Assembly (NCBI GenBank): GCA_030149285.1
Contig: JASBRU010000004.1
Coordinates: 114,997 to 178,996 of the forward strand
Reading direction: 5' to 3'
DNA length: 64,000 nt
DNA from: Flavobacteriales bacterium
Lineage (GTDB): Bacteria; Bacteroidota; Bacteroidia; Flavobacteriales; JASBRU01
The position numbers were made by a program, and so were the translations under genes. The notes under the pieces are model-generated. The model was not told the DNA's origin. It did not search any database and was given only the letters and a program-made list of their open reading frames with translations. This document shows positions 3,617-64,000 of the stretch, in pieces. How positions within the stretch are numbered: the stretch's first letter is position 1; every line of letters begins with the position of its first letter.

Positions 3617-4450
3617 ATGGGAAAATGCATCTATTGTGAAAAAAAAGCAGGTTTTTTAAGTTCTCGGCACAGAGCATGTAAAACCAAATTTGAAAATGGG
3701 GTTCAATTATATATAGATGAAATATCTAATACAATAGTTAAAAAATCTACCTATGAAAATTTAAAACAAAAATTAGAGGAAATAAGGGTATCACACTTGA
3801 TAAAAGAAAACCAAAAACCAAGCTTAATAGCATTAGGCTTTGACAGAGCAATCAAAAGCATTTTAAGTGATCGTTTATTATCTGTAGAAGAAGAGGACAG
3901 AGTAACAGAGTTTAAAACCCGCTTTGAGTTAAGTGAAAAGCTTTTAGATAAAAATGGCTCTTATACAAAAGTAATAATGTCCTCCATATTAAGAGACCTA
4001 AGTATTGGGCTTATTCCAGAATTAAATACCAATAATGTAATTCCCTTGCCTTTCCTTTTTCAAAAATCTGAACAATTGATTTGGTTTTTTAATGATGTAG
4101 GGTATTATGAACAGCAAACACGAACAGAATATCACGGTTCTAAAGGGTCTTTAAACTTTGAGTTATTTAAAGGTGTAGATTATGAGATGAGTTCTTTTTC
4201 TGTTAGCCCTGTATCTATTACAGAAATGAACTATATAAGTACCGGAACACTTGCGATAACCACTAATCATATTTATTTTGGTTCTGATGATACCACTTTT
4301 AAAATTCGTCATTCAAATTTAATTGGCATAGACCCTTATGAAGATGGAATAGGTATTCATACAGACGGATGGAATTCAGTACCCCAAGTATTCAATAATA
4401 TAGATGGATGGTTTATGTATTACGCTATCATAGGTCTTAATAAGCTTTAA
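3617..4450 (+). CDS. hypothetical protein; N-terminal CxxC..H..C zinc motif, C-terminal PH-like region
   Basis: MGKCIYC..AGFL..RH.AC at the N-terminus; C-terminal YYE..TR..Y.G...GTLAITTNHIYF pattern. Confidence 0.7.
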   Translation: MGKCIYCEKKAGFLSSRHRACKTKFENGVQLYIDEISNTIVKKSTYENLKQKLEEIRVSHLIKENQKPSLIALGFDRAIKSILSDRLLSVEEEDRVTEFKTRFELSEKLLDKNGSYTKVIMSSILRDLSIGLIPELNTNNVIPLPFLFQKSEQLIWFFNDVGYYEQQTRTEYHGSKGSLNFELFKGVDYEMSSFSVSPVSITEMNYISTGTLAITTNHIYFGSDDTTFKIRHSNLIGIDPYEDGIGIHTDGWNSVPQVFNNIDGWFMYYAIIGLNKL

Positions 4451-44421: not shown

Positions 44422-47400
44422 CTATTGTACTATGAGGTTATGCACCTCAACAGCACTTTCTCTAGTAAGTTTAACTGTATAAGTTCCTTTTGCAAACGTA
44501 CTTATATCTATTGTTTTCACTTCATTAACAAACACTTTAGTTGTTTCTCTGTAAACAACCTGTCCGTTAATAGCTACAATTTCTATCGTTACGTTTTCAT
44601 CCTTGTAATTTCCATTACTGATGTTAAATACAGTACTTGTAGGGTTAGGGTATATCGCAAATACATCAACTGTATTTTCTTCTATACCAATAAAGCAACT
44701 ATCTACTTGTACAGATACTGAAGCAGACGAGTCTCTACAAACACCGTAACCAGGCACTGTATAAGTAAAGTTATAAGTGCCTTGTATGCCTAATACTGAA
44801 GCATCAAATGTGCTACCTGTAACTCCACCTGTTAAGTCGTCATCACTCCATATTCCACCTACATCAGGCGTACCTGTAAGAATTGTATTTAAGTCTACAG
44901 AGTCATCTAAACAGATAGTCACTGTACCTCCACCTACTCCAGGATTAGCTTCTGCATTAATATTTACAGTTACTAATGCTGTGTCTGTGCCTGTACATAC
45001 CGTACCTGTAACTACATAGTTTGCTACATATGTTCCTGCTCCAATTGAAGAGGGGTCAATAGTAGCCCCTGTAATTAAGGCACCTGTTGTATCGTAGAAG
45101 TTACCTGTAGTATCTCTACCTGCGGTTAATGAAGCTAATAAGTCTAATGATATATCGCTTACACAAGCATCTACTGTTAAGTCTGCTCCTGCATCAGGTA
45201 AACCACTTACAACTACTGTAACTGTTGACGAATCTGAAGGACAAGCTGTTCCTGCCACAGTGTATACAAATGTATACGAGCCTGAAGCTACCGCTGTTGC
45301 ATCAAAAATGTTTCCTGTTAATGCTCCTGTTGCGTTTACATCATTCCATGTTCCGCCCATATCAGAGCCTGGTAAAGCTGCATAAATATCTACAGCATTA
45401 TCTGTAATACATACGGCTAAGCTTGAGTCTGTACCAGCATTTGGTGCAGCTTCAACATTTACATCAATAAAGGCTGTATCGTTATCACATGGATAAGCTA
45501 ATACTACATATGCAAAGTTATATGTTGCTCCTGGAGCTACTGCAGTAGCATCAAACATGTTCATAGTTAAAGCACCTGTTGCGCTTAGATCTACCCACAT
45601 ACCGCCAGCAGTTCCGCCAGTTAAACCAGTGCTTAAGTCTACCATGTTATCCGTTTCACAAGCATCTATTACAGAGCCTGTTCCTGCATCTGGTGTTGCT
45701 ATTACATGAAGTGCAAAAGAATCTACAGCACATGTTGTTGTATAATAAACAGTATAAGAACCCGGTGTGCTTCCTGCTAGGTCTAACATACCTGTAGAGG
45801 TACTCATAAACGCAAGACCTGTAGACGAACTAAATGTTCCGCCTGCATCACCTGTTATAGTAGCTACTGGGTTTACATCTGTCTCACAGAATATAGTGTC
45901 AGGATAGCTAAAGCTAGCATCTCCCGGCACAACTGTTTCTGTAACATCTAATGAATAAACACCATTGTTAGAGCTAAACCCTTCTACTACTACGTAATAA
46001 ACCGTATTTGGCATTACTGGTGTTGTAATTTCAGATTGTGTTCCACAGAAGTCATCGTTTGTAGCAACCGATGAACCCGTAGCATCTAGTACTCTAAGGA
46101 ATGAGTCATAGCTAGTTGCAGCACAAGTTGATACTGTTATAGAGTCTGCACATGGTCCTGTTGTTAACTGATAGAATGCATCTGCAGACCCATTACCAAT
46201 TTGATCAGTAAAGCACTCAGCGGTACTGTTAGAATCTGAATACGGTAATGACGCAATAATAATTGGGTTTGCTAATGAATCCCCTACAAATGGTGCACAT
46301 AAAGTAGTAAAGGTAAATGGTCCTGTCCACATACTCACATCGCCTAAACCACAACTATCTCTTACATACACATCATATGTTGTTTGTGCCATTAAGCTTG
46401 TTGCAGCAAATGGGTTTGTAGTTGTAGATGTCCATGTTGTTCCTAAACCGCTACCGGTTGGTACTATTTGAATATCCCAATTCATTGAGCCTCCACTAGT
46501 CCATCCAATATCTGCAGAACTAGAAGTAATATTTGAAGCATTTATTAATGATGGAGCCGGGCAAGCAGGAGCCTCTATTATAGAAAGGTCATCAATTGCT
46601 TGGTCACCACAACAGCCAAAGCCATTTGCAACAAATCTCACTTGAACTGTATCTCCTGCATATGCAGAGATATTTACAATTGCTTCTAACCATGGTGCTG
46701 AAGAACTTGTTTGTGTTGCTCCTGTAAGGTTATACACATTAGTCCACATTGCGCCATTATCATTAGATACTTCAACATCTAAATCTGGTAACGAAGTACC
46801 ATTTCTATGATACCAAAAACGCAGTTCTGGTGTTGTTAAAGTACTTATATCAATAGTAGGAGAAACTAACATAGCTACGTCACCTGTTGAACCAACAGAA
46901 GCTTCAGTATATAAGAAGTTTCCTGAGCCAGTAGTATGGTCAACTGTTGGCCCATTTCCTGAGCCGGGTGCTGCAGATCTTGGTCCCCATTGCAATACAT
47001 TTGGCGTAACCATATCCGGTGTTCTTGACCAACAAACATCTACAGTTGTGTTTGCGTTCTCAAAACTAGTTCCCGGTACCCAAGTTACTCCATCAAAATC
47101 TTCAGAGTAAGGAGCAGTGAAAATAGTACATGATGTACTAAATGTATAAGGTCCTACCCACATACTTACGTTACCTACACCGCAGCTATCTCTTACATAA
47201 TAGTCATAAGTGGTTGCAGCTGTTAAGCCGCCTAATGTATGAGGGTTATTAGTAGTATTTACTATTGTTCCTGCACCTAAAGCAAAACCAGTTGGTCCCC
47301 ATTGTATATTAGCATCTGTAGCACCACCTGTAGTCCAGCTTAAATCTGCCGAAGTAGGTGTTAAATTACTTGCTGTAGGCGCAGATGGAGGTATACATGC

Positions 47401-50400
47401 AGGAGGAGTACAGTTTCCTGTACCTGTAAACACAACACCCGTTGGAGCGCCTGCCGATACAACTGCTTGAGAAAATACTGTTGTACCATATGGGTCTATT
47501 ATATCATAACTAACTTCTTCGTCAAAAGACCCTCCGTTATACGTTACTGTTAATGCTAGTCCATCACATACATCAAATGTAGAGGTTGCGCTAGAGCCTG
47601 TAGTAAAGGTATGGTTGGTAATAATACCTCCCATATCAATATCTACTGATCCTCCGTTCCATCCATCACCAAATGTGTCAAACATATTTATAGTATATGT
47701 ACAAGGTGCCGCACATGCTGCTGTAGTAAATGTAAATGGTCCTACCCATACACTTACATCACCAGGAGCACAACTGTCTCTTACATAATAATCATAGGTA
47801 GTTGTAGCTGTTAAACCCATTAATGTATAAGGGTTTGCTAATGCTGGAGTTACTGTACCTGAGCCCAAAGAGAAACCGGTAGCTCCCCATTGTATTTCCC
47901 AAGTCGTTGCGCCGCCTGTTGTCCAATCTAAATCTGCTGTTACATCTGTAATGTTAGATGCATTAAGCGCCGAAGGCGCCGGACAAGTTGGTGCTTCTTG
48001 TAATGATACATCATCTATTGCTTGGTCGCCGCAACATCCAAAACCGTCTGCTCTAAATCTCACAACCACTGTATCGTTTGCATAAGCAGAAATATTTACA
48101 ATTGCCTCTAACCATGGGTCAGAAGAACTTGTTTGTATTTGACCCGTTAGTGCATATACACTATCCCAATTTGCTCCATTATCATTAGATATCTCTACAG
48201 TAAGATCTGCTAAGTTTGTGCTAAACCTGTGATACCAAAAACGCATTTCAGGAGTAGTTAATGGAGATAAATCAATGCTTGGAGTCATTAAGAAAGCAAC
48301 GTCTCCTGTACTACTACTTGACGCCTCTACATACATAAAGTTTCCGGTACCAGAATGGTCTACAAACGGACCATTACCACTACCCGGACCATTGTTATCC
48401 GGTATCCACTTAAATGGTTCAGAACCTTGTGAAACATCTGGGTTAGATGACCAACATGGGTCAATTGCATTACCTGAGTTTGAATTTGCGCCAAACCAGC
48501 TTGAGCCATCAAAGCTTTCGCTAAATGGAGCGCTAAATACGGAACATGCTGTTGTAAAAGAATATGGTCCTGTAAAGGCACTTGTTGAGCCTCCACAATC
48601 TTCTTGTACATAATAATCATATGTTGTGTTTCCGCTTAAACCACTTAATGTATGAGGGTTTGAAACACCCATTACCATAGTTCCTGCGCCTTGTATAAAG
48701 CCTGTTGCTCCCCATTCTATATTCCATGCAGTGGTCGACACGTCTCCTGCTGTCCAGCTTAAGTCTGCTGAAGATGGTGTAAAGTTTGATGCAGTTAACA
48801 ATGATGGTTGTGTACAGCTTGCCGGTGTAAATTCATCCGCACCAATATCTACAGTTGTAGAACCTGATGCCGGACGTAATTCTCCATCAACATCTTCTGT
48901 AATACCCACAGTATTATCACCAACATCATTAGGTAATGTACCAATAATATGAAGGTCTGAAGCCGGGTTTAAATACCCAGGGTCTCCTTCTAATGAGTTT
49001 ACGTTTAAAGCAACGTCAACTGCTTGCCATGCTGCTAATGTAGCATAGCTAGTACCATTATATGAAATAAGGTTAGTACCTGTTCCGTAATAAATATTAT
49101 AGTTTATAACATCCGTAACATCTTGTCCAGATGTTGAGGTTCCTGTTTCATATGCAAAATCTGTTGAGGTACTGAAAATGTTATTTCTAATATTAAGTCC
49201 TTCAGTATCTCCCACTCTCATTCCCGGAAAACCTTCAAATGAGTTATGGTAAATATCTACATAAGCTACATCATCAATCCAAATTGCCTCATCGTTTGGT
49301 GCAATAACCATGTTGTTGCTTATCACAGATTGAGTAGTTGGGGCAGGAACTACACCTGAAGTTCCTCCTGAAAAGTTCAAATCATCCAAAGTCATCCCTT
49401 GATCTGCAGCAACTATAACGTTTCCTGAAATTGTAAAGTTATCTATGTCATCTGCCTCTATACCATTACTTGAAGTCCCTCTTAAGCCAGAGATGTTATT
49501 CCATGATATGGTTAGTGAGTCTTGATAGTCAACCTCAATACCATCATCTTCCTGTCCTGTAAGAGTATTGTTTGTAACACTGTTACCAACATTGAATGGT
49601 GTTGAGCTTGAAATTCCTGTTAGCTGAATTCCTCCAGAGCCTCCTGTAATTGTATTATTATCTATAATCGTATAGTTTGCGTTGTCTCCTGTGCTTGTTG
49701 CAGAAGTAATAGAGTTTGAAGTCACAATTCCTATTACATCAAATGTTCCGGCAGGATTCATGTCAATAACACAATTTTGAATTGTATTGTGATTTGCTTG
49801 GTTTTGTAACATTACTCCCCAAGCATCAGACGTCCCTGTATTTTGGATTGTTAAATTTTGGATTGTTACCCAGTCTGCTCCATTAATCCATACTGTTGGA
49901 GTATCATTTGGGCTTGAGTAAGATATTGTTGTGGTTGCTGCGCTACCACCATCAAAAGTAACTGAGTTAGACAAGCTCCCTCCTAAAATATCTCCGCTAA
50001 AAATTAAGGGTTCGTTATAAGTTCCGGCAGCTATATTAAATATTACCGGGCCTGAAACACCACAAGTATTAAGTTCTGCTGTTGCTTCTGCAATCGTTTG
50101 GAAGTTTGTTCCTCCCGTTGCTACAGCTGAGTTAATAGTATATACACCACTTAATTGAGATGCACATAATGTTGTAAATGATATTGGTCCTACCCAAGCA
50201 CTTACGTCTGCTGCTGCACAGCTGTCTCTTACATATGCATCATATGTAGCATTTGATAGTAAGCCAGGAATAGTCATTGGGTTGCTTGGTGCAGCAATAA
50301 TAGTTCCTGATCCTTGTGTAAAACCAGTTGGACCATATTCTATTTGCCAGTTAGTTGCCCCTCCTGTTGTCCAGCTCATATCTGCTGAAGTAGAAGTAAT

Positions 50401-51036
50401 ATTAGCAATTGCTAAATTTGAGGGTTGTGGACAACTTGGTGCTTCTGCTATTGAAAAATCATCAATTGCAAAGTCATCATCAAAGTCAGAACCATTGTTT
50501 TCATCTACAATAAACCTAAACTGAATATTTCCGGTAATAGTATATGCCCCTAAAGGTAGGATTACTTCTTCCCAGCCAGCCGTATTTGCCGACCTTGTGT
50601 AAATAGCTGTGTTCCATGCTGCTCCATCAAAAAAGTCAATAGAGAACGTAACATTAGTTGCGTCTTCTCTATCACTGTTTATCCAAAGCCTCATTTCGGG
50701 TACAGTAAGAGCTGAAACGTCAATTGTTGGTGACTCTAATGTGGTTCCTGTATTATGCGGTGATGAATCATCAACAAAAGCATAATATCCTGAGCCCGCA
50801 TCAATACCTATTGTGTGGTCTCCCAAATTATTAAGGTTTCCTTGATGGCCTGAGCCAAATCCGTTGTTAAAAAGCCAACTTTCTGAATTTGAGGCACCTT
50901 GCGCCCAGTTAGTGGGAATTGATCCTCCGTTGTCGAAGTTTTCTGTGTACGGTGCTGTAACTTGTCCAAATGTTGTTTTAGTAGACAACAATAGAAAGCA
51001 CAACAATACCGCTAACGATAGTATCGTTCTTCTCAT
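44422..51036 (-). CDS. 2204-aa T9SS-secreted multidomain protein (3 MAM-like, 5 FN3, beta-helix, Ig-like repeats, type A CTD)
   Basis: Signal peptide; repeated (C/P).PS.L...N.T..SA..SW...YD.YVR.SC FN3 units; E.FD...DH....IDD MAM-like units; C-terminal IYPNP...G.Y.V T9SS sorting domain. Confidence 0.88.
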   Translation of the reverse strand: MRRTILSLAVLLCFLLLSTKTTFGQVTAPYTENFDNGGSIPTNWAQGASNSESWLFNNGFGSGHQGNLNNLGDHTIGIDAGSGYYAFVDDSSPHNTGTTLESPTIDVSALTVPEMRLWINSDREDATNVTFSIDFFDGAAWNTAIYTRSANTAGWEEVILPLGAYTITGNIQFRFIVDENNGSDFDDDFAIDDFSIAEAPSCPQPSNLAIANITSTSADMSWTTGGATNWQIEYGPTGFTQGSGTIIAAPSNPMTIPGLLSNATYDAYVRDSCAAADVSAWVGPISFTTLCASQLSGVYTINSAVATGGTNFQTIAEATAELNTCGVSGPVIFNIAAGTYNEPLIFSGDILGGSLSNSVTFDGGSAATTTISYSSPNDTPTVWINGADWVTIQNLTIQNTGTSDAWGVMLQNQANHNTIQNCVIDMNPAGTFDVIGIVTSNSITSATSTGDNANYTIIDNNTITGGSGGIQLTGISSSTPFNVGNSVTNNTLTGQEDDGIEVDYQDSLTISWNNISGLRGTSSNGIEADDIDNFTISGNVIVAADQGMTLDDLNFSGGTSGVVPAPTTQSVISNNMVIAPNDEAIWIDDVAYVDIYHNSFEGFPGMRVGDTEGLNIRNNIFSTSTDFAYETGTSTSGQDVTDVINYNIYYGTGTNLISYNGTSYATLAAWQAVDVALNVNSLEGDPGYLNPASDLHIIGTLPNDVGDNTVGITEDVDGELRPASGSTTVDIGADEFTPASCTQPSLLTASNFTPSSADLSWTAGDVSTTAWNIEWGATGFIQGAGTMVMGVSNPHTLSGLSGNTTYDYYVQEDCGGSTSAFTGPYSFTTACSVFSAPFSESFDGSSWFGANSNSGNAIDPCWSSNPDVSQGSEPFKWIPDNNGPGSGNGPFVDHSGTGNFMYVEASSSSTGDVAFLMTPSIDLSPLTTPEMRFWYHRFSTNLADLTVEISNDNGANWDSVYALTGQIQTSSSDPWLEAIVNISAYANDTVVVRFRADGFGCCGDQAIDDVSLQEAPTCPAPSALNASNITDVTADLDWTTGGATTWEIQWGATGFSLGSGTVTPALANPYTLMGLTATTTYDYYVRDSCAPGDVSVWVGPFTFTTAACAAPCTYTINMFDTFGDGWNGGSVDIDMGGIITNHTFTTGSSATSTFDVCDGLALTVTYNGGSFDEEVSYDIIDPYGTTVFSQAVVSAGAPTGVVFTGTGNCTPPACIPPSAPTASNLTPTSADLSWTTGGATDANIQWGPTGFALGAGTIVNTTNNPHTLGGLTAATTYDYYVRDSCGVGNVSMWVGPYTFSTSCTIFTAPYSEDFDGVTWVPGTSFENANTTVDVCWSRTPDMVTPNVLQWGPRSAAPGSGNGPTVDHTTGSGNFLYTEASVGSTGDVAMLVSPTIDISTLTTPELRFWYHRNGTSLPDLDVEVSNDNGAMWTNVYNLTGATQTSSSAPWLEAIVNISAYAGDTVQVRFVANGFGCCGDQAIDDLSIIEAPACPAPSLINASNITSSSADIGWTSGGSMNWDIQIVPTGSGLGTTWTSTTTNPFAATSLMAQTTYDVYVRDSCGLGDVSMWTGPFTFTTLCAPFVGDSLANPIIIASLPYSDSNSTAECFTDQIGNGSADAFYQLTTGPCADSITVSTCAATSYDSFLRVLDATGSSVATNDDFCGTQSEITTPVMPNTVYYVVVEGFSSNNGVYSLDVTETVVPGDASFSYPDTIFCETDVNPVATITGDAGGTFSSSTGLAFMSTSTGMLDLAGSTPGSYTVYYTTTCAVDSFALHVIATPDAGTGSVIDACETDNMVDLSTGLTGGTAGGMWVDLSATGALTMNMFDATAVAPGATYNFAYVVLAYPCDNDTAFIDVNVEAAPNAGTDSSLAVCITDNAVDIYAALPGSDMGGTWNDVNATGALTGNIFDATAVASGSYTFVYTVAGTACPSDSSTVTVVVSGLPDAGADLTVDACVSDISLDLLASLTAGRDTTGNFYDTTGALITGATIDPSSIGAGTYVANYVVTGTVCTGTDTALVTVNINAEANPGVGGGTVTICLDDSVDLNTILTGTPDVGGIWSDDDLTGGVTGSTFDASVLGIQGTYNFTYTVPGYGVCRDSSASVSVQVDSCFIGIEENTVDVFAIYPNPTSTVFNISNGNYKDENVTIEIVAINGQVVYRETTKVFVNEVKTIDISTFAKGTYTVKLTRESAVEVHNLIVQ

Positions 51037-62253: not shown

Positions 62254-62502
62254 ATGGAAGACTATAAACCCATAGACTGTAACCTTTACGACTACCTAGA
62301 GGCTTGGGCTACAACCCGAAAGAATAGTACTGTTGTATACTCTGATGAAGGGGAAAATAAGTCTGCCGAAGGCCTTATTAAAGACCTATATATTAAAGAT
62401 AAGGTTGAGTATATGAAGCTAAATGATAGCGAGATAAGGCTTGATGCTTTGTTAAAAGTAAATGATGTTGATTTTAGCGCCGGAGAAAGTTGTGCTATTT
62501 AA
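62254..62502 (+). CDS. Rho-binding antiterminator Rof/YaeO-like protein
   Basis: Y.PI.C..YD.LE........G...D......EY......IRLD matches the Rof family pattern. Confidence 0.75.
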   Translation: MEDYKPIDCNLYDYLEAWATTRKNSTVVYSDEGENKSAEGLIKDLYIKDKVEYMKLNDSEIRLDALLKVNDVDFSAGESCAI

Positions 62503-62944
62503 CTTTGTATAACATCTCTGAATGCGGAATATCATCTTCTAAATAATCTTTCCCTGTAAACACAAAGCCCAAACTTTCATAAAAAGGCTTGAGGTGTGTT
62601 TGTGCAGATATTCTAACGTCTACATTTCCAAACTCTTTTTCAATATACTCCAGTGCTTTTTGTACTAATGGCCTGCCATAACCTTTCCCTCTTATCTTCA
62701 TTTTAGTGGCAATTCTCCCTATCGATACTTCTTTATAGCTAATGCCTGGGGGTAATATTCGCTGATAAGCTACCATTTCGCCTTCTTCATCTACAGCCCA
62801 TTGGTGTATAGCCTGCTCATCTTTTCCATCCGCATCTTGATAAAAGCAGGTTTGCTCTACCACAAATACTTCTTGTCTAAGCATCATTAGCTGATACAAC
62901 TCTTTTGTATTTAACTCTTCAAATTTTTTGCTTATCCATTTCAT
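62495..62944 (-). CDS. elaA: ElaA family GNAT acetyltransferase
   Basis: F.EL...ELY....LR..VFVVEQ.C.YQD.D, IGR, ISAQ..L..FY...GF, YLED.IPH..M; real start ATG 62944. Confidence 0.9.
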   Translation of the reverse strand: MKWISKKFEELNTKELYQLMMLRQEVFVVEQTCFYQDADGKDEQAIHQWAVDEEGEMVAYQRILPPGISYKEVSIGRIATKMKIRGKGYGRPLVQKALEYIEKEFGNVDVRISAQTHLKPFYESLGFVFTGKDYLEDDIPHSEMLYKVK

Positions 62945-62954
62945 TTGTCGAAAA

Positions 62955-62985
62955 TAAAAAAAGCCGTCCATAAATGAACGGCTTT
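62955..62985 (-). terminator. Rho-independent terminator (end of candidate sRNA)
   Basis: Minus strand AAAGCCGTTCAT-TT-ATGGACGGCTTTTTTT. Confidence 0.8.
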
Positions 62986-63059
62986 CGACCCCTGTATATA
63001 CTTGCTATGAAATTCGAGGTCTTGCTACGAAAATCTTAATATCTTTTGTCTTCTATTAT
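62955..63059 (-). ncRNA. candidate ECF-sigma-dependent small RNA (~100 nt)
   Basis: Bounded by an ECF-type promoter and an intrinsic terminator, no ORF, duplicated UUUC(A/G)UAGCAAG motif. Confidence 0.55.
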
Positions 63060-63065
63060 CTTAAA

Positions 63066-63091
63066 GACGAGCAGCCTCGATTTGCGTTGCA
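63066..63091 (-). promoter_or_regulatory. ECF-sigma promoter TGCAAC-N16-CGTC
   Basis: Minus strand TGCAAC GCAAATCGAGGCTGCT CGTC; canonical AAC/CGT ECF boxes. Confidence 0.65.
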
Positions 63092-63120
63092 CATTATGTG
63101 CAATTTTTTTTGTTTTTTTT

Positions 63121-64000
63121 CTAAATCGTTATACCAAAGGTAATTACATTTATTTCTGGACCTCTATTTTCTATAAAAAGAGTAGATAAATCATACTTTG
63201 CAAATAAATTTATGCCCCATAGACCACCTATTTGCATTTCTAAACCATATCTCAAATCATTTACAAAGTGGCTGTTTTTAACTACCAGTTTAGAGTCATC
63301 ATTATTCAGGTCTTTGTACTCAAAGTTCGTGTGTGTATTGGTTCTAATACCCACATAACCACCTATTCCTATATTAAAACCGTTTTCTCTTCTTGGGCTT
63401 TTGCTAAAATCTAGCTGAAACATAATTGGTATACTTAGATAAGTGTTTTCTAACTTACTTTTGCTTACGCTACCAAAGCCTGCAGTATCTGCATTTACAA
63501 ATGCAGTTGCATCTGCTCCCTTTTGTGCAATAAAGTTTCCGGCCATTTGGTAATTATTCCAGCCCAATTCTAATCCGTATTTAAAATATAGTTTACTATT
63601 CTCTCCGAACAACCTTGTCTTTCTAGAGTACTTTAAACCTAGGTATCTTGAGCCCCATAAGTCTAAATCGTAATTAGTTCCGTCTGCTAATGCGCCGTCA
63701 TCTACAAAGTTATTTAGCGCCAATTGAACGTCAAACTGTCCTACTGTTCTTCGTTTTTTCTTTTTCTTCTCCTTGTATTCTTTTGCTGTATCCCAAACTA
63801 TGTCTGCGGCTTCTCCAATATTGGTAACATTTACATTGTCATTTTCTAAAGAGTCTGTTACCTCAACACCGTCTACCGATACCACCAATTTTCTTTCTCT
63901 CTCCTCTATCTTTCTTTCCAAAATTTCTTCAATAAGCTCCATTTCTGCCTCAAGGGCTTCCATCTTTTCGTCTAAGCGATCTTCCCAATTATCTATTTCG
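63121..64000 (-). CDS. outer-membrane beta-barrel protein with acidic coiled N-terminal region (5' truncated)
   Basis: Frame stays open to the window end (..EIDNWEDRLDEKM..); C-terminal barrel motifs SKL...Y..IP.M, G.GGY.G, F.KYDL..LF, G.T. Confidence 0.8.
   Translation of the reverse strand, partial: EIDNWEDRLDEKMEALEAEMELIEEILERKIEERERKLVVSVDGVEVTDSLENDNVNVTNIGEAADIVWDTAKEYKEKKKKKRRTVGQFDVQLALNNFVDDGALADGTNYDLDLWGSRYLGLKYSRKTRLFGENSKLYFKYGLELGWNNYQMAGNFIAQKGADATAFVNADTAGFGSVSKSKLENTYLSIPIMFQLDFSKSPRRENGFNIGIGGYVGIRTNTHTNFEYKDLNNDDSKLVVKNSHFVNDLRYGLEMQIGGLWGINLFAKYDLSTLFIENRGPEINVITFGITI

Follow-up and report, generated by a model that had tools for sequence, protein, structure and literature searches.

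A candidate trans-acting small RNA at the 3' end of an ECF sigma factor operon in Flavobacteriales, with predicted pairing at the start codon of a TonB-dependent receptor

We analyzed a 64,000-nucleotide stretch of a Flavobacteriales genome (hereafter the window; positions 114997-178996 of contig C8 of genome G000) and found a conserved non-coding element on its minus strand, at the 3' end of an operon encoding an extracytoplasmic function (ECF) sigma factor. The element is real and conserved, and we read it, with a probability of roughly 0.6, as a trans-acting small RNA (sRNA) of about 85-110 nt that would repress a 1210-aa TonB-dependent receptor. Briefly, when the sigma factor is active, transcription would start near 63058-63061 at an ECF-type promoter belonging to the RNA itself (TGCAAC-N16-CGTCT) or, with lower likelihood, the RNA would be processed out of the operon mRNA. 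Its single-stranded segment UUUUCGUAGCA would then pair with UGCUACGAAAA on the mRNA of the receptor, which is encoded on another contig. Because the target mRNAs have no Shine-Dalgarno sequence, covering the AUG should block ribosome loading, and synthesis of this very large outer-membrane barrel would fall. In G000 only, a second seed copy, UUUCAUAGCAA, in a predicted hairpin loop may likewise address the next gene of the target locus, which it matches. An initial annotation of the window had proposed an envelope-stress sRNA at this place; it was partly supported, being right in kind and wrong in register and target breadth.

G000 is the source genome (2.05 Mb, 76% complete) and the sole member of its family in the comparison set. 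Below, f and g numbers denote families and genera of the order, L numbers denote loci, and element coordinates are window positions on the minus strand. The end of the operon and the element are laid out as follows.

63121..64000, minus strand: 3' part of the gene for a 509-aa outer-membrane beta-barrel, the last operon gene; the remainder of the operon lies past the window end
63086..63091, minus strand: -35-like box TGCAAC, part of TGCAAC-N16-CGTC at 63091-63066
63065..63069, minus strand: -10-like box CGTCT (pattern match)
63054..63064, minus strand: 11-mer TTAAGATAATA, spanning the predicted transcription start at about 63058-63061
63023..63033, minus strand: conserved single-stranded seed UUUUCGUAGCA, core CGUAGCA, unpaired in the minimum-free-energy fold
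63032-63021, minus strand: first seed copy TTTCGTAGCAAG, the CGU copy (pattern match)
63012-63001, minus strand: second seed copy TTTCATAGCAAG / UUUCAUAGCAAG, the CAU copy (UUUCAUAGCAA), in the loop of hairpin 1, G000 only
62987..63021, minus strand: hairpin 1 of the minimum-free-energy fold, GACCUC/GGGGUC stem with a 23-nt loop holding the second seed copy
62950..62986, minus strand: intrinsic terminator with a 12-bp stem, a 4-nt loop and a U-run (stem-loop at 62986-62959, T-run beyond)

All sequence features of the initial annotation that were checked were found in place, at levels above chance. The box pair TGCAAC-N16-CGTC was located at precisely 63091-63066 and is the only match in the window, where shuffles lead one to expect 0.06; the 2.05-Mb genome has four. 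The boxes are followed by ~100 nt that hold no ATG (by eye) and end in the strong terminator, and no minus-strand open reading frame (ORF) of at least 30 aa was found from the barrel stop codon (63121) to 62971. The element region folds with z = -4.1, and the minimum-free-energy fold agrees with the proposed 23-nt loop around the second seed copy. Both copies are present, 20 nt apart (2 matches vs 0.02 expected; 0 of 100 shuffles gave 2).

The complement of the seed, UGCUACGAAA, reads A-UG-CUA-CGA-AA and was found at the start of the 1210-aa receptor gene on G000 contig C7, whose product has CarboxypepD_reg, Plug and barrel domains. The complementarity to UGCUACGAAAA covers the UG of the start codon and codons 2-4. 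ATGCTACGAAAACTACT also begins the receptor orthologue in G056 and G089, and the 10-mer is rare in these genomes (5 copies in G056 and 7 in G089, antisense of the sRNA included). In G000, GCTACGAAA has nine non-self copies, three of them in start regions (two TonB-dependent receptor genes and one 5' untranslated region, UTR). The initial annotation had set the seed against GCU-AUG-AAA, at the starts of MK(K) signal-peptide genes in general, and this register was not supported: the conserved one is A-UG-CUA-CGA-AA at a single receptor. One of its in-window target sites, GCTATGAGA, is indeed present at the ATG of a 2204-aa ORF (44422-51036). GCT before ATGAAA at gene starts is no more enriched than other common contexts, and window matches to GCTATGAAA with at most one mismatch are at chance level (33 vs 25 +/- 5). 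What stands of the proposed pairing at the start codon of an outer-membrane protein is the complement at the receptor start, in another register and with a narrower target range.

The receptor is a single-copy protein, about 50% identical across the order, and was identified in 140 of 301 genomes (E <= 1e-100). ATGCTACGAA (ATG CTA CGA AA/AG) was found at its start in 10 of 30 loci, namely in G000, in 7/7 of f12 and in 2/2 of f18. The motif was absent from all 13 receptor starts of f16, which read MGKK, MVKR and similar, and from all 20 of f2, f3, f8, f9, f13 and f15, although MLRK is common there; MLRK is encoded with TTA/TTG AGA in f3, CTG AGA in f13 and CTG CGA in f15. Across the order, the 17-mer pattern occurs in 11 of 401 genomes, and ten of these are the receptor starts described here. 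The 17-mer of G386 (f16) was considered as a case of co-occurrence and rejected, as it lies in an unrelated gene and there is no seed behind the barrel paralogue of that genome. In G000, CTA makes up 15% of leucine codons and CGA 7.5% of arginine codons. At conserved residues farther into the receptor signal peptide, synonymous sites vary freely.

We compared the duplex energy of each sRNA with its own target against 300 shuffled seeds, which the own pair outdid in most genomes. The G000 duplex reached -20.5 kcal/mol, with 11 contiguous base pairs over +2 to +12, and 1/300 shuffles was as good. The corresponding values were -17.4 kcal/mol (2/300) for G056, -15.8 kcal/mol (4/300) for G079 and -36.6 kcal/mol (0/300) for G089, where pairing is near-continuous over ~30 nt. 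For the G000 RNA, the receptor start ranks 3rd of 1858 start regions of the genome. In a cross matrix, the sRNAs paired poorly with the receptor starts of f3 and f16. The regions downstream of the barrel in f15 and f16 showed no consistent excess of pairing with their own receptor starts (6/9 within the shuffle range). The second seed copy, UUUCAUAGCAAG, complements UUGCUAUGAAA (TTGCTATGAAA) at the start of the 1290-aa gene directly downstream of the receptor gene.

The target locus itself lies outside the window, at C7:194362-205140 of G000 (L102 3364-14140). It contains genes for an AhpC/TSA-like lipoprotein, a Cu2_monoox_C protein, the 1210-aa receptor, the 1290-aa protein and a PorV/PorQ-family protein. 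Four of the five begin with GCTA(C/T)GAA at or next to the ATG, a start shared by about 21 genes in the genome. The pair of receptor and large-protein genes is syntenic across families.

A DNA search with the 186-nt region against 61 relatives from the order returned matches to the terminator and the A-run only, so homologues were sought through the barrel protein. A single-protein search of genome contigs found no close relatives of G000. Relatives of the barrel protein were present in 80 of 301 order genomes, and we read the DNA 3' of the barrel stop codon in 30 order loci. Seven of these, from G000 and six f12 genomes of two genera, contained CGTAGCA followed by a hairpin and a same-strand terminator; the core usually takes the form UUUCGUAGCA (as DNA, TTTCGTAGCA(G/A)). 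The remaining 23 loci (f4, f15 and f16) had no CGTAGCA element. Three of nine metagenome loci read were also carriers (L080, L081 and L083). Both f18 genomes, G034 and G017, were examined, and in G034 the module (CGTCTTTTAAGATCGTAGCAG, hairpin, terminator) begins 2 nt past the barrel stop codon. The distance from stop codon to seed ranges from 2 nt in G034 through 87 nt in G000 to ~100 nt in g12, with a single same-strand terminator downstream.

CGTAGCA is invariant in all seven aligned homologues, in a MAFFT alignment with a mean column identity of 61%. All homologues close with a same-strand terminator, and each aligned sequence folds individually into a hairpin and a terminator, with hairpins that differ in sequence and position. 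As the hairpins are out of register and RNAalifold gave a null result, we claim conservation of layout and not statistical covariation. The conservation expected by the initial annotation was seen for the seed, hairpin and terminator layout, across three families, and for the promoter boxes in only part of the carriers. The duplication of the seed is real in G000 and specific to it; the conserved copy is CGU.

In six loci of genus g36 of f16 (L050, L051, L053, L058, L065 and L066), the first 80 nt past the barrel stop contain a different short element. A small hairpin, with (A)UUCGUGUGC kept in its loop, is followed by a terminator and the GNAT gene. It showed no excess complementarity to the receptor start of that genus.

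The operon upstream of the element consists of genes for a 191-aa ECF sigma factor (Sigma70_r2, r4_2 and ECF domains), a 216-aa membrane protein and the 509-aa barrel (Pfam OMP_b-brl_2, 30.4 bits, cut-off 27), which overlap head-to-tail. The initial annotation had correctly anticipated an ECF sigma gene upstream of the barrel gene, outside the window. The 216-aa protein is anti-sigma-like, with one hydrophobic stretch (by eye) and no Pfam match. The same operon was found in f12 and in the metagenome loci L080 and L081, with sigma factors about 50% identical (54% for L081, a distinct lineage).

The 11-mer TTAAGATAATA has five copies in G000, two of which are the element site and a site upstream of the operon's sigma gene. 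These two belong to a 17-nt near-repeat, TTAAGATAATA(A/G)AA(A/G)AC, located 3' of the element's -10 box and of TGGAAT-N16-CGAT upstream of sigma. The region upstream of the sigma gene also contains GACAAC-N16-GTGTCTTG in G000, and GGCAAC-N16-(G/T)TGTCTAT at the same place in f12. We scanned G000 for [GA]CAAC-N17-18-GTCT[TA] and obtained 43 matches, eight of them intergenic (19%, vs 8% of the genome being intergenic), while a reversed control motif gave 4/51. The eight intergenic matches lie upstream of the operon's sigma gene, a second ECF sigma gene and genes for an M16 peptidase, an ABC ATPase, a BNR protein and a di-haem peroxidase, at the sRNA described here, and at a sibling locus, B, behind pspC. 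In genus g12, TGTAAT-N16-CGTCT runs across the barrel stop codon, with a conserved CGTCT and a 16-nt spacer of variable sequence. CGTCT is also kept in G034, 8 nt ahead of the seed. A CGT box at -10 appears in ECF motif SM6 of Flavobacterium psychrophilum (PMC9723704). The sRNA probably has its own ECF-type promoter, as far as the motif comparison goes, with processing of the operon's 3' UTR as the main alternative; by either route, its expression would follow the operon.

At L038 4850-4960 (minus strand, outside the window), 5' of the sigma gene, the ECF-like sites are arranged in tandem: TGGAAT-N16-CGAT with TTAAGATAATAAAAAAC, then GACAAC-N16-GTGTCTTG. By its sequence, the first of these may be what the sRNA promoter region was copied from, or itself a copy of that region. 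In family f4, a related site, TGTAAC-N16-CGTCA, was observed ~80-140 nt past the barrel stop (L046), followed by a gene for a membrane-anchored protein instead of an sRNA. This promoter-like site would, as judged from its motif, drive a different cargo in that family.

A number of observations weigh against the favoured reading. At the promoter, the element's TGCAAC-N16-CGTCTTT belongs to the same motif class as the motif upstream of sigma, with a spacer 1 nt shorter. The matches in relatives are imperfect: the -35 box of g12 reads TGTAAT and overlaps the stop codon, and neither G089 nor G017 has a clear promoter-box match. The lack of clear boxes in these two genomes would suit an RNA with the same function and no promoter of its own, which would be the operon mRNA's 3' UTR released by processing, as CpxQ is, with a fortuitous or weak box match. 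The minus strand has no operon terminator between the barrel stop codon and the seed, and as the seed lies 2 nt past the stop codon in G034 and overlaps it in G017, any promoter there would be inside coding sequence. On the other hand, the G000 boxes are themselves intergenic, their motif class is enriched between genes and recurs 5' of two sigma genes, g12 keeps CGTCT across a varying spacer, and the layout of G034 places the start site at the seed, AAGAUCGUAGCA. We regard release by processing as a serious competitor, though a clearly less probable one than the sRNA with its own promoter.

The remaining points against the sRNA reading concern conservation, pairing and the kind of data. RNAalifold found no consensus structure or pairs in the MAFFT alignment of seven modules, so covariation lends the hairpins no statistical support. 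In G043 and G068 the seed has eroded to UACGUAGCA, in G034 it has no U-run (8 bp), and in G017 it is a variant, GGAGTAGTATTCTAGTAGCG, that straddles the stop codon and carries a 2-nt insertion. The pair of seed and target is carried by five genera only; these may be one clade, in which case the shared codons could partly reflect inheritance. The f12 genome G028, 99% complete, has neither the barrel gene nor the sRNA and yet keeps ATGCTACGAAGA. Duplexes are less distinctive in some carriers: -15.5 kcal/mol in G034 and -20.0 kcal/mol in G017, each with 11/300 shuffles as good, and -17.3 kcal/mol in G043/G068 (7-8/300), where the best site is in the 5' UTR and not at the AUG. The cognate pair is not the best in every case of the cross matrix. 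The initial annotation had also expected target enrichment at start codons, but genome-wide duplexes of <= -12 kcal/mol with start regions numbered 50, vs 36 +/- 18 for shuffled seeds, and are not above them. Finally, while sequences, conservation and complementarity were read directly, transcription, sigma dependence and repression are predictions from sequence alone.

Some of these points would also fit an ordinary 3' UTR and terminator without a role in trans, whose motif would act in cis (on stability, or as a nuclease site) or be simply inherited, with a coincidental match to the receptor. The absence of a consensus structure and the target codons kept in G028 without the RNA agree with this, as does the copy number of the 9-mer TTCGTAGCA, which at ten in G000 is near a rough composition-based estimate of ~14. 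However, a 7-10-nt core is invariant across three families whose flanks have diverged, its exact complement stands at the same orthologous start codon, rare synonymous codons are fixed there only in the carrier families, and G089 has the ~30-nt duplex. In addition, six of the ten TTCGTAGCA copies are intergenic, four of them with terminators. An ordinary 3' UTR is on balance unlikely.

Two further features follow the barrel gene in G000.

63104..63120, minus strand: A8-C-A8 run directly 3' of the barrel stop codon; its plus-strand reading is a T-run that follows the palindrome
63087..63103, no strand: perfect 8-1-8 palindrome TTGCACAT-A-ATGTGCAA, overlapping the -35-like box, with the centre A on the minus and T on the plus strand

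The palindrome over the -35 box had been noted in the initial annotation, and it is perfect. It could be an operator or the stem of a plus-strand terminator; the matching stretch is coding sequence in f12 and f18. As a protein-binding-like sequence near the seed, it lends some colour to the idea that the shared 10-mer is bound as DNA by a transcription factor, both 3' of the barrel gene and where the receptor gene begins, and DNA sites work in both orientations. Against this, the 10-mer is not palindromic, in every homologue it precedes the hairpin and terminator at a constant position on the strand of the operon, its target copy overlaps codons 1-4 and not a promoter, and the lineage-specific extensions of complementarity in G089 and g12 fit RNA pairing. 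We consider a DNA site very improbable.

We examined the ten copies of TTCGTAGCA in G000. On a rough gene map, six are intergenic and two are the antisense of target starts. Four of the six have a terminator downstream: the element and three siblings, B, C and D, on the same strand. Sibling B (C5:435127; 435040-435240; L169 about 4040-4240) is directly behind a PspC-domain gene (PspC, LiaI-LiaF-TM and Toast-rack). It has AGCAAC-N16-GTGTCTTT across the pspC stop codon, then UUCGUAGCA, a UAGUUUUUCGAAAA stretch that is also present in the G089 sRNA, and a terminator. This arrangement suggests that sibling B is another ECF-driven sRNA that shares the element's seed and is linked to an envelope gene of the phage-shock type. 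Sibling C (C5:446466; 446440-446540; L170) has UUCGUAGCA and a terminator 3' of a PDZ gene with a type IX secretion system (T9SS) sorting domain; it reads GUCGUAGUUUUUCUUCGUAGCA and, allowing for a small bulge, is complementary to ~15 nt at the receptor start. Sibling D (C7:115263; 115230-115350; L171) has UUCGUAGCA and a terminator 3' of a 326-aa gene without a family match. Among the best predicted targets of the siblings are the AhpC/TSA-like lipoprotein (ATGCTACGAAG), whose gene lies 2 kb 5' of that for the receptor, and a TonB-dependent receptor of 815 aa.

No extra seed copies were found outside ORFs in G056, G089 and G034. With the known locus and the target-start antisense set aside, nearly all matches to the seed 9-mer in G056, G089, G034, G028 and G017 lie inside long ORFs. 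Behind pspC in four relatives, only G043 has a look-alike, and a degenerate one: in L175, the first 60 nt past the pspC stop contain TTTTCGCACTAAGCAGAAACAC and a terminator, like G043's own sRNA (…UACGUAGCAGAAACAC). Judged by this likeness, L175 may be a decayed sibling behind pspC in f12.

Loci with the UCGUAGCA seed occur once in most carrier genomes and four times in G000. A tentative extension, which we hold as possible but more doubtful than the sRNA itself, is that they form an sRNA family acting as the non-coding arm of an ECF regulon in a set of Flavobacteriales-like lineages. Its founding copy would be the one in the sigma operon, its pairing would have frozen CTA CGA in three families, and it would be the first sigma-linked sRNA circuit in Bacteroidota. 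A literature search, with subscription-only papers and supplements outside its scope, returned no description of an ECF-sigma-linked sRNA in Bacteroidota or Flavobacteriia.

To our knowledge, nearly all that has been learned about post-transcriptional control in Bacteroidota comes from gut Bacteroides, through GibS and FopS. FopS of Bacteroides thetaiotaomicron blocks translation of SusC-like TonB-dependent transporters and belongs to a multicopy family, the GibS and FopS seeds pair at or beside the start codon of mRNAs without a Shine-Dalgarno sequence, and the promoters are canonical sigmaA for FopS and a PM2 motif for GibS (PMC7366714, PMC11697453). The element is similar in being from the same phylum, in its start-codon pairing (in silico here), in a seed unpaired in the minimum-free-energy fold and in its terminator, and the Rfam consensus of GibS opens with ...UUUUUCAUAGUA..., resembling the CAU copy. 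It differs from GibS and FopS in its ECF-type box pair and its position at the 3' end of a sigma operon, and it is predicted to act on a single conserved receptor that does not belong to a typical SusC/D pair. No Rfam family reaches its gathering score for the element. GibS (RF04182) is the best match, at 32.3 bits vs a gathering score of 115 (E = 0.016), and the match is mainly to the terminator. Ten homologue and sibling loci gave no match to GibS or FopS at E <= 1.

In enterobacteria, MicA, RybB and MicL are the non-coding arm of the sigmaE response and lower the synthesis of outer-membrane proteins by pairing at translation starts; sRNAs of this type depend on Hfq. MicL has a sigmaE promoter inside a gene and shares the terminator of that gene, a layout like that proposed from sequence for the element. 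The element is from another phylum, is physically part of the sigma operon and has a sigma dependence predicted from its boxes. Rfam matches up to E = 10 included no family of the MicA, RybB or MicL type. Outside Proteobacteria, a sigmaE-linked non-coding arm is described for Fusobacterium nucleatum, where FoxI and FoxJ are reported to be sigmaE-dependent sRNAs (PMC9546586, PMC11005410). FoxI and FoxJ are unrelated to the element in phylum and sequence. CpxQ, from the 3' UTR of cpxP, is freed through RNase E cleavage and regulates mRNAs of envelope proteins in trans. Like CpxQ, the element follows the stop codon of a stress-response operon, ends at the terminator of that mRNA and is predicted to act in trans; unlike CpxQ, it has a separate promoter-like site. 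Its position directly 3' of a stop codon, with the terminator of the upstream mRNA shared, is that of a 3'-UTR sRNA.

If the sRNA reading is true, the design of envelope homeostasis that combines a sigma factor with a repressor sRNA either evolved independently here or occurs much more widely than has been assumed. It would also mean that an sRNA acts by covering the AUG where no Shine-Dalgarno sequence exists, and that it has shaped the 5' codon choice of a major outer-membrane receptor in abundant uncultured lineages.

The start of a GNAT acetyltransferase gene is located at 62944, ~6 nt past the terminator. This closeness, together with the recurrence of the barrel-then-GNAT order in f16, would agree with a leader or attenuator of the GNAT gene. 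However, the f12 element precedes a convergent gene and not a GNAT gene, and f16 genomes with the GNAT synteny have no motif. A plus-strand element, either an antisense RNA or a 10-codon ORF (MKFEVLLRKS) ending at a plus-strand terminator-like site, could likewise be drawn from the hairpin and T-run at 63086-63112, but neither the terminator nor the mini-ORF was seen in relatives. We find these two accounts barely credible.

On the plus strand, the site at 63086-63104, formed by the palindrome, with T8-G-T8 (to 63120) scores as an intrinsic terminator for transcripts antisense to the sRNA. No plus-strand gene is obviously in need of this terminator-like site, and it was not seen in relatives. 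An 82-aa plus-strand ORF at 62254-62502 has a weak ROF-like match (20.8 bits, under the cut-off of 27.6). No plus-strand terminator was found between it and the GNAT gene (62495-62944, minus strand), on which it converges with an 8-nt overlap at the GNAT 3' end.

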